In this document: positions 1 to 8,020 of the stretch, in pieces
How the letters are laid out: the number at the start of each line of letters is the position of its first letter
Numbering within the stretch: the first letter of the stretch is position 1
Source of the DNA: a bacterium
GTDB taxonomy: Bacteria; UBA8248
Assembly: GCA_965203325.1 (NCBI GenBank)
Contig: OZ241875.1
Span: forward strand, 3,168,001 to 3,232,000
DNA: 64,000 bases
Reading direction: 5' to 3'
Notes under the pieces: generated by a model
The model's database searches: none
Told to the model about the DNA's origin: nothing
What the model saw: the letters and a program-made list of their open reading frames with translations, nothing else
Position numbers and translations under genes: made by a program

Positions 1-159
1 CACGAAGTTTTCGAGGGTAAGGAAATTCTCGGTCGCAAAAGTGTAGAAGATCATCAAGACTACGAACGCGGAAATGAGGAGCACCCGCTCCCAGGGAATA
101 TCCTTTACCGGATAACCCAAGATGAACTTTTCATTTTCCGCCGAGACTGCAGCGCTCAT
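1..159 (-). CDS. Sugar ABC transporter permease (RbsC-like), N-terminal fragment running off the window edge
   Basis: Manual translation MSAAVSAENEKFILGYPVKDIPWERVLLISAFVVLMIFYTFATENFLTLENFV has a TM helix and the FLT..N motif. GGAGG RBS upstream; lies directly downstream of the sugar ABC ATPase. Confidence 0.75.
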   Translation of the reverse strand, partial: MSAAVSAENEKFILGYPVKDIPWERVLLISAFVVLMIFYTFATENFLTLENFV

Positions 160-181: not shown

Positions 182-2140
182 TCAATCCGCCGTCATTGCG
201 TAGCGCAAAATTCCTTCTTGCGTAGCTTCGTTTCTGTCGATATCTGCGGTGAGCCGTCCTTCACGCATCACCAGAATGCGGTCGCTCATTCCGAGAATCT
301 CGGGCAATTCGCTTGAAATCATCATAACCGCAGCGCCGTCTTTGGCAAGTTGCAGCATCTGCGAGTGAACTTCGAATTTAGCGCCTATGTCTATCCCGCG
401 AGTCGGCTCATCGAATATGAGCACGTTGGCGCGTCTGAAGAGCCATTTTGCGAGAACGACTTTTTGCTGATTGCCGCCCGAGAGAAAGCGTATTTGCGTC
501 TCCTGGTTCGGCGTCATGATTTTTAGCTGGTCGATATGCTCATCGACGAAATCTTTTTCCATACTCAGGTTGAGCAGCCAACGCTTGATGAGGCGGCGGA
601 GATTAGCACTTGTGGTGTTATAAGCAACCGAGAGAACCTGGGTGAGGCCTTGGGTTTTCCTGTCCTCGGGCAACAGCCCCAGCCCGCGTCGTATGGCCAG
701 CGTTGGGGTCCACTTGCGCTCATGCGTGAGGATTGTGAGGAATCGAATCACAATCATGGCGACGCCGCCCCAGATCATGACCCATTCGAGAACGAAATTC
801 TGGGTGAACAGACTCGTAAAGACCATCGCGCATATCGCCAGGGCGTACCAGCTTGCGAAGTCGATGATCAAGGTGCGCCAGCGGTACTGCCGTTCGAGGA
901 ACCAAAGTCCCAATTGCCTCAGGACGGCCAATCCGGCGGCGACGAGATAGGGGGTGGGACCGTTCGGTATGTTGTATAACGGCCCGCCAAGAATCCATTC
1001 ATAAAACCAATTCCCACTGAAAAGTGGTGGTGGTGAGTTCATGTTGAGCGTGAAAGGATCGTAAATCCCCTGGAAGATGACGGTGAACAAAGGCAAAGCC
1101 AGCATGAAGACAACCACATCGACGAGCGCCATCCATAGCGGGTAGTGGGGGAGTTTTTGTATCTCCTCTTTCTCTTTTGTCGCGTTGGTCATCTCGACGG
1201 TGCCGCCATCAACAGGGTCCGCGCCCATCACGGCCCGAGCCACTTCGGTTCTTCCCGCGCCTACGAGACCCGAGAGGCCGACGATTTCGCCATAATGAAG
1301 GTCAAAATTGATGTCTTCGAATACGCCGTTTCGGGTGAGTCCACGCACCCGCAAAGCTACTTCTCCATGTTCACGGGGCGTCCAGGGGAATTTCTCATCG
1401 AGCGTTCGTCCCACCATCTGCGTGATCAGGAAATCGAGTTCCACCTCCTTGACTTCCCACGTGCCCATATATTCCCCGTCACGCAGGACAGTGACGCGGT
1501 CTCCAATCTCGTGGACTTCTTCAAGGCGGTGGGAGATGTAAATGATGCCGACGCCATGCTCCCGCAAACGGTTGACCGCCTTGAAGAGTTCCTCGATTTC
1601 GTGGCCGCTCAAAGAAGACGTGGGCTCATCCATCACCAATATTTTGCAGTCGAACGCAAGAGCCCGGGCGATCTCCACCATTTGCTGATCCGCGACGCTT
1701 AGAGAGCGGACCGGCGCATTGACGTCGATTTTCACGTCCAGACGCTCCATGATTGCGCGGGATTCTTGCTCGACTTTGGCCCAATCCACACGCTTCATGA
1801 CGCCGGGCAAGACCGGTTCACGACCCAGGAAGATGTTTTTGGCCACGCTCAAATCGGGCACCAGGTTCAGTTCCTGATAGATGACGCTGATTCCCAGATC
1901 GCGCCCGGTTCTGGCGTCGGGAATAATGGTGGGTGTTTCGCTAATCTCGATTTGCCCCGAATCGGCGTGATACATGCCTGCCAGAATTTTGATGAGCGTG
2001 GATTTTCCGGCCCCGTTCTCACCCAAAAGGATGTGGACTTCGCCTTCGGCGAGATCGAAATCGACTTCTTTGAGCGCATGAACGCCCGGAAAGGACTTGT
2101 CGATTTTCATCATTTTCAGCAAATTCTTGGATTCTGGCAC
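182..2140 (-). CDS. Sugar ABC transporter ATP-binding protein (RbsA/MglA type, two NBDs) with a hydrophobic insertion in NBD2
   Basis: Motifs GENGAGKSTL, VIYQE, DEPT, ISHRLEE, GLVGAGRTE, PEDRK, LSGGNQQK, DEPTRGID, SSELPE. About 150 extra hydrophobic residues lie before PEDRK. Confidence 0.9.
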   Translation of the reverse strand: MPESKNLLKMMKIDKSFPGVHALKEVDFDLAEGEVHILLGENGAGKSTLIKILAGMYHADSGQIEISETPTIIPDARTGRDLGISVIYQELNLVPDLSVAKNIFLGREPVLPGVMKRVDWAKVEQESRAIMERLDVKIDVNAPVRSLSVADQQMVEIARALAFDCKILVMDEPTSSLSGHEIEELFKAVNRLREHGVGIIYISHRLEEVHEIGDRVTVLRDGEYMGTWEVKEVELDFLITQMVGRTLDEKFPWTPREHGEVALRVRGLTRNGVFEDINFDLHYGEIVGLSGLVGAGRTEVARAVMGADPVDGGTVEMTNATKEKEEIQKLPHYPLWMALVDVVVFMLALPLFTVIFQGIYDPFTLNMNSPPPLFSGNWFYEWILGGPLYNIPNGPTPYLVAAGLAVLRQLGLWFLERQYRWRTLIIDFASWYALAICAMVFTSLFTQNFVLEWVMIWGGVAMIVIRFLTILTHERKWTPTLAIRRGLGLLPEDRKTQGLTQVLSVAYNTTSANLRRLIKRWLLNLSMEKDFVDEHIDQLKIMTPNQETQIRFLSGGNQQKVVLAKWLFRRANVLIFDEPTRGIDIGAKFEVHSQMLQLAKDGAAVMMISSELPEILGMSDRILVMREGRLTADIDRNEATQEGILRYAMTAD

Positions 2141-2379: not shown

Positions 2380-2643
2380 GTGGGCTGTCTGAAAATTCTG
2401 GGGTTAGTTGTTTTCTTTCTTGTGAGCGTGTCCAGCGCGTTTGCCGAAGAAACACACGGCAAAACCGATGCGTGCCTGGTTACTCTTTACAACTACCCCG
2501 CCGAATCACCTAAGTATGACATTACGAAGAAAGCGCCGCCCCAATCCCCCTTGACTCAGACAAAGAATCTTCGCGCAAGCAAAGCGGTTAAAAATACACA
2601 ATCTCGCAAGAGTCTTCTGACACAAGTTCATAGCAAAAAATAA
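2380..2643 (+). CDS. Putative small secreted protein
   Basis: GTG start followed by a signal-peptide-like segment (LKILGLVVFFLVSVSSAFA-EE). No recognisable domain. Confidence 0.4.
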   Translation: MGCLKILGLVVFFLVSVSSAFAEETHGKTDACLVTLYNYPAESPKYDITKKAPPQSPLTQTKNLRASKAVKNTQSRKSLLTQVHSKK

Positions 2644-2681: not shown

Positions 2682-3290
2682 TTAGCGGTCGATGACACTT
2701 CGGTATTCGGCGGATGGGGTATGTTGTGCCGGCCAGTCCATCCCATCTTCAAAACGGGCCAAAACGCTTGCGTGACGGGCGAAACCACCCTCCAGCAGAG
2801 CGACCGAGACGATCTCCACGATTGCCGGCTCGTCAAAGCCGTGCTCGCGCAACGCTTGAAACTCTTCGTCTGTTAGTTGTTCGTTGAGCGTAAGTTTTCT
2901 GGCCACGCGGAATACTGCTTTTTCCGACTCGGGCAAATCTGCATTTTCAAAATCATGGAGTTTTTCCACTTCATACTCATCGAGTTCCATGCGGTGAATG
3001 AGGTCGGTTTTGTGGAAATTCACGCATCGGGGACAATCGGAAGCAACTGCGCAAACCATCGCGATACGATTGGTCAACTCGCGTGAAATGTGACCATCCA
3101 GCACTTCGAGACGTTTTTGCAGCTCCCAGAATCCACTTAGGAGACCCGGCACATGAGCGAAAAAACCGAACAAAGGCCCCAGCCAGCGCGGGTCTTTCAA
3201 TCGGCATATCTCATCATAAATTTGTGAAACCTCGCTTTCGGCTTCATTGGGTTTTACGAGACGAAAGGTTTCAAAACCGGGTGTGCTCAT
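2682..3290 (-). CDS. AhpD/carboxymuconolactone decarboxylase-like (peroxidase-related) protein
   Basis: CxxC-H motif (SDCPRCVNFH) and AhpD-like helical pattern (EFQALREHGFDEPAIVEIV). Confidence 0.75.
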   Translation of the reverse strand: MSTPGFETFRLVKPNEAESEVSQIYDEICRLKDPRWLGPLFGFFAHVPGLLSGFWELQKRLEVLDGHISRELTNRIAMVCAVASDCPRCVNFHKTDLIHRMELDEYEVEKLHDFENADLPESEKAVFRVARKLTLNEQLTDEEFQALREHGFDEPAIVEIVSVALLEGGFARHASVLARFEDGMDWPAQHTPSAEYRSVIDR

Positions 3291-3427: not shown

Positions 3428-4399
3428 TTACATCATGCCTGCTTCTTTCCAATAGCGTGACGCGCCCGGGTGTATTTTCAGTTTCTTCATGCCGCGAAGG
3501 CCGGTCTTTTTAGTAACGTATTTCCCGGTTGGATGGTACTTGGTGATTTGCTTGTGATTGTCGTACAGGGCTTTAACGATCCCATATGCGTTGGCATTGC
3601 TCATTTTGCTGTTGGTCATCAATGTCCACATCTGGCCCCAGCTAACGACGTCTTTTTTGTAGCCGGGAATGGAGCCGGCAGCTACGACATCGCGTACGAT
3701 GCCCGCTTCGTTATCAGCCAGCTTTTTGATGGTGGCGTCATCCGGACCGAAGAAATGCAGTTTGCCGGAGAGCGTGCGTGCGAGTTCCATGTATACTGGT
3801 GCGGGAACATTCGCGTTCAGGAAGAAAAAGCCGGCGTCCACCCTTTCGTCTCTGATTGCGGCCGCATTCTGGGGGTTGTTGAAGAATTCTTTTTTCGCTT
3901 TTACGCCGCTGTGTTTGAGTGCAAGCTGCGTAACGATGTAAATGGAACCCCCGCGTCCGCCGACGACGAATCTTTTGCCGGTGAGGTCGGACCATTTCTT
4001 GATTCCGGAGGTCTTGAAGGTGGTATAGACCGTCGTCAACGGGTACAGGGCCCCTAACGCCAGCACGTCTTGGGGTTTCTTGAATGGTTTTCTGCCCACT
4101 TGTCCCCACGAGACGGCAGGCGCCGTGGCCATGCCAATACGGAGGGCTTGGTTTTTGTCTTTCTTCTGAAGGGTGCGGACATTTGCGGTTGAACCGCCGG
4201 TAATGGATGCAGCCACCGAGATTTTTCCACCGGAGTTATCCGTGATGACTTTACCCATTGCGGTTCCAATTTCGAAGGTGGCGCCGCCGGGCTGGGACGT
4301 TCCCAGAAGTATTTTGGCTGCGTTCGCCGTCGGGGCCGTGCCGATAACCAAGGCAAGACCTGCCGCCAACGTAATCAGCCGAAGCGTGGATTTCCTCAT
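3428..4399 (-). CDS. TAXI-family TRAP transporter solute-binding subunit
   Basis: Signal peptide; LGTSQPGG, TGGSTANV, SDLTGKR and IHPGASRYWKE motifs. Start set at MRKST after an AGGAGA RBS. Confidence 0.88.
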   Translation of the reverse strand: MRKSTLRLITLAAGLALVIGTAPTANAAKILLGTSQPGGATFEIGTAMGKVITDNSGGKISVAASITGGSTANVRTLQKKDKNQALRIGMATAPAVSWGQVGRKPFKKPQDVLALGALYPLTTVYTTFKTSGIKKWSDLTGKRFVVGGRGGSIYIVTQLALKHSGVKAKKEFFNNPQNAAAIRDERVDAGFFFLNANVPAPVYMELARTLSGKLHFFGPDDATIKKLADNEAGIVRDVVAAGSIPGYKKDVVSWGQMWTLMTNSKMSNANAYGIVKALYDNHKQITKYHPTGKYVTKKTGLRGMKKLKIHPGASRYWKEAGMM

Positions 4400-4604
4400 T
4401 CGTTTCTCCTTTTTGGTAGTGAAAATTACTCCCACGTTTCGACTTGGAAAGTCGAAACTCATGAATAAAATGCCGAACTTTGGAGTCTGTCGAGTTCGCT
4501 ACACTTAAGCAAAACCATCTGGTTTGGTCAAGTGGTTAGAATTATATAGAAAGCAAAATTTCCTAAGTCGCTGGCGAAAGAAACAAACTATCCGATAGAA
4601 TAGC

Positions 4605-4693: not shown

Positions 4694-7600
4694 ATGAATA
4701 CAGAATCAGACCCCACCCAGTCGGCTCCTCTCGTAAGGGCTCTGGTTTTCATCACTTCCTGGCTATGCGTGCTCTCGGGTTTGTATCACATTTCCGCGGT
4801 CTATCTCCGGCCTTTGCCGGGTGAGATGCACCCCAACATGCACATGCTTTTGGCCTATACCATTCTTCTCATCGGCGGCGCCGGAGCAATGCCTCAGATT
4901 TACGGGGATAAAATTCGCAAGCTGAAGTTCCTTCCCGTCCTCTACCTTTTGTCTTTGATTCCCGCCGTCATCTTCTATTATTTCGTCTACGAGATGGGAG
5001 AAGGTTGGTCTGACTGGAGTGTTTGGTGGGTTTATGCGCTACCGTTCGCCATCTGGATGGCGATGATGGTCGTCGAGAAATCCTGGCTCGCGCTTTTTCT
5101 CTGGTTATTGGGCTTTGTTCCTGCCCCTATACTTTTTTGGTATTGGGATTATTTGCCCGAAAGCACGCATGAGCCCAACTTTTGGTGGCTTATAATCGCA
5201 TGCTCCGCCATTCCCACGATGTGGACCTTGTTCGCGGTTTTCTTCAGACCTGCCGAGGGAGTGAAAAAAGCGGGTGTTTTTCTCGTTGTATTTTTCGTAG
5301 CGCTCATTCTGATTGGGTGGCGGGTAGGATTGTGGGCCGGGCAAAGCGATGCGGTGAGGAGCGCTTTTTACCTCTGGCCGGCGATTGTACTCGCTTTTCC
5401 TCTTTTTTGGGCGAAAAGACGGATCAAAGAGGTGTTTCAGGAATATCCCGCGCATCCTTTTCCGGCAGGCTTCACGATCGGCCTGAACGCAGGGATGCTT
5501 TTCTTCGTGGCGACCTCATGCCTGTACCTGTTCTACTACCACGAAGAGATGGTCGATCGCCCGGGCGCGCCGACAATCGGCGATGCGCGCGTCGGCTTCG
5601 TCATGATCGTCGTCGCTCTCGAATTGACGAGGCGCTGTTTCGGCCCCCCGCTTCCGACCTTGGCGATGATTGCTTTGGCTTATGGTATATGGGGCAATTT
5701 GTTTGCGCCTCCTTTCGGGCATGGCGGCCATACATGGATAGAACTCCAGGCGAAACTCTCTACCGATTTCATCGGTGGCGTTTTGGGCTTTTTGGTCGTC
5801 ATCTCGGCGACCTTTATCATCATGTTTCTGATCTTGGGGGCGTTTCTGCATGAATCGGGCGCGGGCCGTTTTTTCGTGAACTTCGCCTTGGGGCTGTTTG
5901 GAAAGCTGCGTGCGGGCGCCGGCCTCGCCGCCGTGGGTTCGAGCGCGCTCATGGGTACGGTATCGGGCAGCGCATCCGGCAACGTCGTAACCACCGGCAC
6001 GTTCACGATTCCGCTCATGAAGCGTATCGGGCTGAGCCCGCACATCGCCGGAGCGGCGGAAGCGGCGGCCAGCAGCGGCGGACAGATCATGCCGCCTGTC
6101 ATGGGGGCGGGCGCCTTCATCATGAGTGAACTCATCGAGGTGCCGTATTTCCAGATTATCGGATACGCCACCATACCGGCCATCTTGTATTTCACCATCG
6201 TGGGGATCAACATCCACTTTGCGGCCGGCGCGCTGAACATCCAGCCGTTGCCCGCTAACGAAATTCCGAGTTGGAGGGCGGAACTCAGGAACGGATGGTT
6301 CTATCTCGTGCCCCTGGCGTTTTTGGTCTATTTCCTCTTTCAGGGCAGAACGCCCGTATTCGCCGGCGTCATGTCGGTTTTCATTATGGTGGGCATCTGG
6401 TTTTACCGGAACGTGACGGAATTTTTGGGTACTATGAGGAGAGGCGACAAGACGATCGCAGATGATGTATTCGTTTTTGTGCCGGTTACGTTTTGGGTTT
6501 TCACATTTTTCCTATACGCGTTGCTCACGGTTTTCGAGTTGGGTTTCGGATTTCCGTTGGGGGTATACGGAAAACCGACTTGGGGCGGGGCGATAAAGGC
6601 TGCTCTTTCTCTGGGTGTCGTCGGATTTGTTCTGGCGAGCGTTTTCGCTCGCATGTTCTCCTGGGTGGGTGAATTCTGGCGCGAGACAGAAAGCAACTGG
6701 CTCGCCATCTTCCCGCTCACGTTGTTGGGTTTGTGGGTCGCCTTCGGCTGGTCTTCCGGCGTGGCGGGAGCCGCTCTCGTGCTGGCCCTGCTGAGCGTAT
6801 GGTCCGTTTCCAGGGGCAAAGGAGCGCAACCCACCACGACCATACCTTGGCTTTTCGTCATGATTTGGGTGGGCGCCTATTATGTGCAAAAAGGAATTTA
6901 TGCGCTCGTCCCCGCCATAGCGAATTTCGGCGAATGGTTCGTGCCTTTCGGGTTCATATATGACGGTCTCATCTTTTTCGGGTTGGCCGTCATCGTGCAG
7001 AGGGTTATTTTTTCATTCGGCTCGCAAGAATCCGACCCCGAAGCCCCGACGCCTAACCTGAAGCAGGTGTTGGCCGTATCCTGCAATCCGTTCACCTATT
7101 TGCGCAGGGCGAAGCAGACGGGTGAGACCGGCCCTGCCGCGCAGGCTGCGCAAAGCGCCTCCGACTGGATTTTCAGCATTCGCAACGCTCTGCGCGTAGG
7201 CGGCAGGCAAGGGGCTGAATTCGCCGTGACGCTGGCTACCATCGAGGTCGTCGTTCAGGTTCTGTCCATCACGGGCGTGGGCAACAAGTTCGCCTTCATG
7301 ATCGAGGCCCTCGCCCAGGATATATGCGTGTTCGGCGCCGCTGTCGGTGGCGGGTGCGCGTATTATATCGGCCTCGATGGTTTCTTTGTCGCATTGCTGC
7401 TGACGGCGGTTTGCTGCGCCATATTGGGAATGGGCATGCCGACGACCGCGGCGTATGTTCTACTCGCCATTCTGGGCGGACCGGTGCTGGTTAAACTCGT
7501 GGGTCCTGAACTCACGCATATTTACGGAGCGGAATGGGTCAAGGAGTTCGTGGCCGCCAAGGGAGACCGGGTCGCGGCCCACATGTTCATCTTCTACTTC

Positions 7601-8020
7601 GCGATTCTCTCCGCCATTACGCCGCCCGTGGCGATAGCTTCGCTCGTTGGGGCCAAGCTGGCGGGAGCGCCCTATTTCAAGACGTCCATGATGTCTCTTC
7701 GCTTCGCCATCGTGGGCTTTATCGTGCCGTTTTTGTTCATGTTCGACCCGGCGCTGCTTACGTTCGCGAGTCCGTTGCGCGTCGCGCTTTCCGCATCCAT
7801 TACGCTCCTGGGATTCATCGCTTTCTCGGCGGGAACGCAAGGCTGGCTCTTCGACAGGCTATACAAATACGAGCGGATACTCTTGTTTGCCTGCTTCATC
7901 GCGTTCATCTTGTTCGTCATTTTCTTCAGCATTACCATGCTGGTAGCGGGCTTGGTTTGCGGCGGGATTCCGCTTGTCCGGCAAATCAAGGATTACAGGA
8001 AACCTGTTCCCCAAACATAG
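4694..8020 (+). CDS. TRAP transporter fused 4TM/12TM permease (TAXI type), expanded to 1108 aa
   Basis: Motifs SSALMGTVSGSASGNVVTTGTFTIPLMKR, EAAASSGGQIMPPVMGAGAFIM, LGMGMPTTAAY, AHMFIFYFAILSAITPPVA. Confidence 0.92.
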   Translation: MNTESDPTQSAPLVRALVFITSWLCVLSGLYHISAVYLRPLPGEMHPNMHMLLAYTILLIGGAGAMPQIYGDKIRKLKFLPVLYLLSLIPAVIFYYFVYEMGEGWSDWSVWWVYALPFAIWMAMMVVEKSWLALFLWLLGFVPAPILFWYWDYLPESTHEPNFWWLIIACSAIPTMWTLFAVFFRPAEGVKKAGVFLVVFFVALILIGWRVGLWAGQSDAVRSAFYLWPAIVLAFPLFWAKRRIKEVFQEYPAHPFPAGFTIGLNAGMLFFVATSCLYLFYYHEEMVDRPGAPTIGDARVGFVMIVVALELTRRCFGPPLPTLAMIALAYGIWGNLFAPPFGHGGHTWIELQAKLSTDFIGGVLGFLVVISATFIIMFLILGAFLHESGAGRFFVNFALGLFGKLRAGAGLAAVGSSALMGTVSGSASGNVVTTGTFTIPLMKRIGLSPHIAGAAEAAASSGGQIMPPVMGAGAFIMSELIEVPYFQIIGYATIPAILYFTIVGINIHFAAGALNIQPLPANEIPSWRAELRNGWFYLVPLAFLVYFLFQGRTPVFAGVMSVFIMVGIWFYRNVTEFLGTMRRGDKTIADDVFVFVPVTFWVFTFFLYALLTVFELGFGFPLGVYGKPTWGGAIKAALSLGVVGFVLASVFARMFSWVGEFWRETESNWLAIFPLTLLGLWVAFGWSSGVAGAALVLALLSVWSVSRGKGAQPTTTIPWLFVMIWVGAYYVQKGIYALVPAIANFGEWFVPFGFIYDGLIFFGLAVIVQRVIFSFGSQESDPEAPTPNLKQVLAVSCNPFTYLRRAKQTGETGPAAQAAQSASDWIFSIRNALRVGGRQGAEFAVTLATIEVVVQVLSITGVGNKFAFMIEALAQDICVFGAAVGGGCAYYIGLDGFFVALLLTAVCCAILGMGMPTTAAYVLLAILGGPVLVKLVGPELTHIYGAEWVKEFVAAKGDRVAAHMFIFYFAILSAITPPVAIASLVGAKLAGAPYFKTSMMSLRFAIVGFIVPFLFMFDPALLTFASPLRVALSASITLLGFIAFSAGTQGWLFDRLYKYERILLFACFIAFILFVIFFSITMLVAGLVCGGIPLVRQIKDYRKPVPQT

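Follow-up and report, generated by a model that had tools for sequence, protein, structure and literature searches.

The operon and its neighbours

At the left end of the window (the whole stretch of DNA analysed, 64,000 nucleotides) lies the first gene of a transporter operon. The gene (182..2140, reverse strand) is a single open frame with a GTG start and encodes a tandem ABC ATPase of the CUT2 (RbsA/AraG) type with 652 residues. It is followed by permease 1 (337 aa; 3167146-3168159 of the genome, G000), the 5' end of which falls in the window (1..159, reverse strand). Permease 2 (331 aa), a binding protein (352 aa; L135:1989-3047, reverse strand) and a convergent molybdoenzyme gene lie beyond the left edge. 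Both downstream permeases are RbsC-type. All four operon genes were present in 28 of the 29 loci examined, the remaining locus ending at a contig edge. Scans for promoters and terminators stayed at chance level.

The ATPase was matched by PF00005 of Pfam in three stretches. Its best NCBIfam scores were 552 bits for AraG and 518 bits for RbsA, under every equivalog cut-off, and the top ten matches were all tandem sugar-type ATPases; in a tree built from the NBD columns it was nested among RbsA-like proteins. With its two permeases and binding protein it makes up a complete CUT2 importer, in which it is the working ATPase; importers of this class (TC 3.A.1.2) take up monosaccharides or related solutes, which would be the putative cargo here. 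Two fused NBDs, with one working and one degenerate site, are shared with RbsA, AraG, XylG and MglA, and so are the accompanying genes, for permeases of RbsC type and a binding protein of sugar type.

The binding protein is TorT-like and ends in a basic tail. TorT was its best NCBIfam match with 102 bits against a cut-off of 200 (next family, 78 bits), a second score being 75 against a cut-off of 310, and two of its relatives carry the JGI name 'protein TorT'. TorT is a periplasmic protein that binds TMAO; in the cited portion of PMC8050422, it is described as binding the outside domain of the membrane sensor TorS, whereas the gene here belongs to a transporter operon. The tail comprises the last 17 residues, with 5-8 Lys/Arg and no acidic residue in all eight complete family proteins. 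The three nearest binding proteins outside have an unrelated 10-residue end, and those of two genomes (G043 and G048) stop 4-5 residues past the same Trp. Constraint on the tail matches that on the protein body (pN 0.009 vs 0.014).

Divergently from the operon runs an unannotated gene (2380..2643, forward strand) for a protein of 87 residues with a signal-peptide-like N-terminus, recognized by eye, and a variable tail. Its motif, D-x-C-L-x-x-L-Y-N-Y-P, has eight invariant residues in 11, and one Cys is invariant. No NCBIfam or Pfam family matched the protein; an alignment of 14 copies shows synonymous changes at third positions, which marks the gene as coding. The convergent gene on the other side of the operon (L135:833-1915, the same as 3163832-3164914 of the genome; forward strand) encodes a SorA/MsrP-like molybdoenzyme with a twin-Arg-type start.

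Several other genes of the region were recorded. An AhpD/CMD-like protein (2682-3290, reverse strand) is encoded upstream of the operon in most loci of the same genus and was not seen in the second genus. A TAXI-type binding protein (3428-4462) accompanies a TRAP fused permease (4694-8020, forward strand) of 1108 aa with 22 hydrophobic segments, the ten other TRAP fused permeases of the genome having 617-868 aa and 12-18 segments. This large permease, found in most loci of the genus, has long extra hydrophobic stretches ahead of and inside its DctM part. To the left of the window (3150214-3156090 of the genome), a gene for a fatty-acid-desaturase-like membrane domain with a GlnE-like C-terminal part (798 aa) is followed by one for a YcaO-type protein (772 aa), all labels being given by eye from the translations.

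The insert in NBD2 and its membrane topology

NBD1 (residues 6-245; 1406..2125, reverse strand) carries Walker A GENGAGKS, Q-loop IYQE, a Walker B, H-loop YISH and the degenerate signature LSVAD. NBD2 comes in two parts on the same strand. Part 1 (residues 258-317; 1190..1369) holds GLVGAGRT, a degenerate Walker A, as well as the strand that leads up to an insert, while part 2 (residues 478-652; 185..709) holds LPEDRK, signature LSGGN, Walker B LIFDEPT and MISSE. An earlier sequence-only reading of this DNA had taken all ABC motifs to be intact, which does not hold: Arg replaces Lys in the Walker A of NBD2, ISSE stands at its H-loop position, and LSVAD is the signature of NBD1. This is the usual CUT2 asymmetry. 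The pairing of GENGAGKS with LSGGN against GLVGAGRT with LSVAD recurs in 20/20 insert proteins, and the same asymmetry is found in most of the 98 best listed insert-less relatives; one canonical and one degenerate site have been described for RbsA (PMC11466899, in the section cited). As NBD1 has a full Walker A and NBD2 the signature LSGGN, the working ATP site is formed by NBD1 plus the NBD2 signature.

The insert (residues 318-477; 710..1189, reverse strand) is bounded by GADPVDGGTVEM, the last residue of which is 317, and TPTLAIRRGLGLLPEDRK, the first residue of which is 478. Its extent was obtained from a joint alignment, in which the spacer from the residue following the NBD2 Walker A to the Glu of LPEDRK was measured. 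The spacer is 192 in all 20 full-length family proteins, three partial ones being excluded. Relatives were collected with residues 246-652 as query by scoring the 8000 candidates sharing most words, and the best 120 were listed; among these, the 98 best insert-less relatives have a spacer of 40 (97 proteins) or 41 (one protein). Thus the insert substitutes for an 8-residue turn of NBD2, and since the nearest insert-less relatives listed have 8 residues at this site, the net gain is 152 residues. The length of the insert was 160 aa in every full copy examined. The presence of an in-frame insertion with hydrophobic segments inside NBD2, as first read, is confirmed; the limits given for it (712-1185) miss the reading frame and fall short by a few bases. 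Read from the motifs on either side, the insert sits in the catalytically degenerate half, just ahead of the Q-loop region, where the coupling helix of a permease docks according to the cited part of PMC3971661. The ATPase therein departs from the CUT2 pattern of a soluble protein of about 500 aa without membrane helices: it has 652 aa against 456-536 aa in the 98 best listed insert-less relatives, the 152 residues gained within NBD2 being predicted to include four membrane helices.

Four hydrophobic segments had been quoted for the insert, and all four are present, although they differ in strength. The maxima on the Kyte-Doolittle scale (over 19 residues), averaged over 20 family proteins, were 2.50, 1.33, 1.66 and 1.97 for segments 1-4, and segment 2 is therefore just moderately hydrophobic. 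At a cut-off of 1.6, three segments were counted in 15 of the 20 proteins, two in four and four in one; the 98 best listed insert-less relatives gave none in 86 and one in 12. Predicted helix 1 (residues 335-356; 1073..1138) contains the invariant Asp341. It leads into the predicted outside loop 1 (residues 357-397; 950..1072), a Pro/aromatic-rich stretch of 41 aa with a short helix at 376-385, in which 22 columns are invariant among the 20 proteins. Predicted helix 2 (residues 398-416; 893..949), weakly hydrophobic and with an invariant Arg408-Gln409, is joined by a basic and variable inside loop (417-427) to predicted helix 3 (residues 428-446; 803..859). The predicted outside loop 3 (residues 447-452; 785..802), QNFxxE with four of six columns invariant, and predicted helix 4 (residues 453-472; 725..784), placed by hydropathy and AlphaFold, follow, all of these features being on the reverse strand. 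Within or beside the helices, Asp341, Arg408, Gln409, Asp427 and Glu452 are invariant.

The mean number of Lys+Arg in 20 proteins is 3.2 in the N flank, 0.5 in loop 1 (41 aa), 2.0 in loop 2 (11 aa), 0.1 in loop 3 and 3.25 in the C flank; this alternation of high and low fits the positive-inside pattern of four passes. Outside loops 1 and 3 are net acidic. AlphaFold, run on the full protein with 20 sequences, placed helices at 335-356, 396-415, 421-445 and 451-476, each 20-26 residues long, and the insert alone gave the same four helices (mean pLDDT 55.1). The mean pLDDT of the full model was 61.5, with blocks of about 50-80 in the insert and values under 50 for residues 473-570, so normal folding of NBD2 around the insert is not demonstrated by the model. 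Conservation peaks near the helical periodicity, at 90-100 degrees, in helices 2-4.

Because the flanks of the insert are parts of a cytoplasmic domain, the number of crossings must be even, and with both flanks inside, the best reading is a segment that crosses four times and exposes loops 1 and 3 on the outside. According to these predictions, the insert is very probably a four-pass element that starts and finishes on the inner side, and the ATPase would so be an integral membrane protein with a 41-aa periplasmic loop. Helix 2 is the weak point of the four-pass reading. Its mean of 1.33 and its invariant Arg-Gln, together with the single protein of 20 that shows four segments at 1.6 and the low-confidence models, would suit a topology in which just helices 1 and 4 cross, or a monotopic or re-entrant patch in the inner leaflet, with no outside docking loop as drawn here. 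Such arrangements are nevertheless very unlikely, as the basic loop 2 between nearly Lys/Arg-free loops 1 and 3 argues for four crossings and all four helices have 20-26 residues. The view of a membrane-anchored ATPase with unusual architecture in the sequence-only reading is thus borne out at the level of prediction, by the four helices that both AlphaFold runs gave, at low to moderate confidence, and by positive-inside charges.

Distribution, origin and selection

When the 51 genomes of the class were searched with a profile of the insert, one copy each was found in 27: in 22 of the 23 from the same genus (G000 included), in four of five from a second genus and in the only one from a third. 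In G017, the one genome of its own genus without a match, the contig starts within permease 2, so that it still carries the last part of that gene together with those for the binding protein and its downstream neighbour, while the ATPase is cut off. An orthologous permease (at least 80% identity) occurs in exactly the same 27 genomes, and none of the 51 yielded a copy of this operon that lacks the insert. The 20 insert proteins compared form one clade (NBD columns only, FastTree support 1.0, midpoint-rooted), the nearest outside proteins being 60% identical. These sequence relationships show a single origin of the insertion, in the ancestor of the three genera. Public records of the relatives bear the label Nitrospinota, and many of them come from sponge metagenomes; the carriers are uncultured bacteria of one family, from the sea and from sponges, and the range, three genera, is narrow. 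To judge from PMC10839748, the lineage is probably UBA8248-like. The nearest insert-less operon in the same family (locus L079; G043:C6:178000-192000) contains an ordinary ATPase of 502 aa (P0059) and two permeases with 41% identity; its binding protein is related too, but the tail is short.

That the insert might be an assembly artefact, an intervening sequence or a decaying gene is practically negligible as an explanation. It is contradicted by the occurrence in 27 genomes of three genera, by a dN/dS of 0.12 for the insert and by a GC and GC3 that resemble the rest of the gene. Contigs from four of the 22 sequencing runs listed were aligned to the gene as well. A single contig of DNA run X6 spans 100-2112 with 23 differences, and DNA run X4 gave two contigs, each across one junction. 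Contigs of the RNA libraries X19 (880-1292) and X20 (510-1058) each cross a junction, a result uninformative on transcription or strand. No joint skipping the insert was found among those listed in the runs compared. A chimeric assembly is ruled out by the 27 genomes and the independent X6 contig.

In searches for relatives of the insert, Pfam gave no family for the insert of the window and, over 18 family members, weak scattered matches, the best with an E of 0.015 in one member; NCBIfam gave no match. ESM Atlas returned no usable match for the insert and ABC fragments only for the query with flanks, while PDB sequences yielded chitinase A alone with an E of about 2. No second copy was found in the same genome. 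Against 1.84 billion representatives the insert profile detected one cluster and no relative outside the clade, and over 401 genomes it detected the same 27 plus two short frames at chance level (E 0.036 and 0.041). Sequence look-ups with the insert and with the 87-aa gene were likewise empty. Within the scope of these searches, the architecture is not a common one in described families. Structural comparison was made with the insert model (pLDDT 55): Foldseek gave no match at E ≤ 0.001, and VIA-align gave Insig (6m49_A; Z 9.8, rmsd 3.0, 104 aligned) and MvINS (4xu4_A; Z 6.3, rmsd 3.3, 104 aligned). The level for helical bundles is about 13 in VIA-align, so the Insig match lies within the background and is a weak lead. 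The best Z in a repeat fold search was 5.8, and the full model returned ABC domains only.

Derivation from a four-helix domain of the WcaJ/WbaP/CapD type (PF13727 region) was a resemblance by eye without statistical support; hhalign of the insert against 18 and 31 such domains of this class gave E values of 0.22-0.75, and in a profile test of the four-helix domain the inserts ranked 39th or lower among the ORFs. A genome-wide habit of helix insertion was discarded: among 90 ABC-like ORFs of G000, this ATPase alone has several segments inside an NBD, the segments of the other multi-segment ABC proteins being N-terminal to the NBD. Several genera were also seen to have proteins of roughly 600 aa (L115-L132; for example G028:C1:796600-799000), in which an apparent WecA/MraY-type membrane part is combined with a CapD-like four-helix part and CoA_binding_3; save for the PF13727 match, these domains were labelled by eye.

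Selection was measured in two ways. Over the 159 of 351 sequence pairs with pS of 0.05-0.5, dN/dS was 0.049-0.051 for the NBD parts and 0.12 for the whole insert, in which loop 1 had 0.050, loop 3 had 0.009, the helices 0.16-0.26 and the inside loop 0.15. In a set of 11 pairs, no two of which had a sequence in common, pN was 0.021 for the outside loops (bootstrap interval 0.010-0.035), 0.021 for the NBD, 0.045 for the helices (0.031-0.060) and 0.10 for the inside loop, the intervals of outside loops and helices overlapping slightly. The insert is under purifying selection. Both measures are consistent with outside loops constrained like the ATPase core and helices constrained less.

Possible roles and what the architecture means

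The term 'anchor' is probably too modest for the insert, since it is the predicted outside loops, rather than the helices, that are under the strongest selection. By way of the insert, the motor probably spans the membrane and makes contact with a partner on its outer side. By analogy, the outside loops are a putative docking surface for the periplasmic side of their own transporter, most likely for the binding protein with its basic tail, a proposal to which we give somewhat less than an even chance. It finds a parallel in MalFGK2, where the periplasmic P2 loop of MalF binds the substrate-binding protein (PMC6906923, in the excerpt cited). An extra periplasmic element between membrane helices is common to both, and the insert may be a functional analogue of P2. 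P2 is, however, a 185-aa Ig-like domain of a permease, whereas the element here is a 41-aa loop on helices of the ATPase. In the ancestor of the three genera, a 160-aa segment replaced the surface turn between Walker A and Q-loop of the degenerate NBD2. Outside loops 1 and 3, borne by the motor, would then hold either the binding protein or the permeases on their periplasmic side, much as MalE is held by MalF P2. Where nutrients are scarce, this might keep the binding protein close to the permease, and the state of the binding protein could be relayed directly to NBD2. Against docking it may be said that loops rich in Pro, Gly and aromatic residues can be constrained by folding alone, and that ordinary CUT2 importers, of which the same genome has four or five, function without such a domain.

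One alternative is a passive anchor or assembly scaffold, in which the helices fasten the ATPase to the membrane next to a permease, against which they pack, and the loops are conserved for folding of the bundle only. The helices do drift like lipid-facing surfaces (dN/dS 0.16-0.26, with the periodicity of 90-100 degrees in helices 2-4), and the degenerate half, in which the site is located, should be able to accommodate extra sequence, to judge from the cited part of PMC11466899. Yet an anchor requires neither a 41-aa loop with 22 invariant columns nor a fixed length of 160 aa, and the invariant Asp341, Arg408, Gln409, Asp427 and Glu452 suggest specific contacts, which makes this explanation doubtful, if by no means far-fetched.

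The genes that travel with the operon suggest a different partner. The 87-aa gene is present in 26 of the 27 insert genomes and in none of the 24 others (in G049 at the end of another contig), and the molybdoenzyme, found in 26 of 41 family genomes besides G000, has nearly the range of the insert; its gene is interrupted by a stop in G009, and two distant copies (40-42% identity) occur in another family. The insert might accordingly be a receptor or switch that binds the mature 87-aa protein, or senses a signal linked to the periplasmic molybdoenzyme, and toggles the ATPase across the membrane. The coding nature of the gene, its lack of a family match and the roughly 11 conserved residues past the signal-like segment, as a peptide ligand would show, speak for such a role. 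G054, however, keeps insert and operon, yet the motif was not found there and apparently just the downstream part of the 87-aa gene is left; linkage accounts equally well for the co-occurrence, and the signal peptide was judged by eye. The tail, the 87-aa gene and the insert may simply be neighbours inherited as a block in kin that are not independent. We regard a receptor or switch as improbable on this balance. The same low standing is given to its boldest form, an ATPase that would act as its own transmembrane receptor, binding the mini-protein motif and/or the basic tail and switching ATP turnover with the permeases bypassed. A separate idea, the insert as heme-binding partner of the molybdoenzyme, was dropped: there is no conserved His within the predicted helices, and the genome encodes PF01794 in a gene of its own.

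HisP is reportedly the subject of an old proposal that it spans the membrane, which is not drawn on here. The KAP/YobI P-loop NTPases (Tmn) have membrane helices within a P-loop NTPase domain, as the cited passage of PMC13001434 describes. They are another class of NTPase with two inserted helices and a role in defence or signalling, and the core here is ABC and not KAP-type; the likeness is architectural only. In the literature covered, with supplements and most subscription journals outside the search, this architecture was not described for an ABC ATPase. The CUT2 importer and helices within P-loop domains are known; new here, for a CUT2 ATPase with a nested domain of four predicted membrane helices, are the constraint on the predicted outside loops, the conserved basic tail of the binding protein and the co-occurring 87-aa protein, putatively secreted.

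The system lends itself to experiment, being compact, with four genes, and expressible in a laboratory strain. The insert-less P0059 of G043, about 60% identical, is a natural control, and the 87-aa mini-protein that travels with the operon is a concrete candidate partner. A search of the PDB found no solved CUT2 ATPase, so a structure would be doubly informative. The turn of NBD2 is marked as a site that tolerates a whole membrane domain. If the receptor form were true, the receptor-ATPase would make a self-contained regulated importer. Importer ATPases have been treated as soluble motors that are informed of the outside through the coupling helices of the permease alone, and an ATPase with its own predicted membrane domain and a conserved outside loop would break that division.
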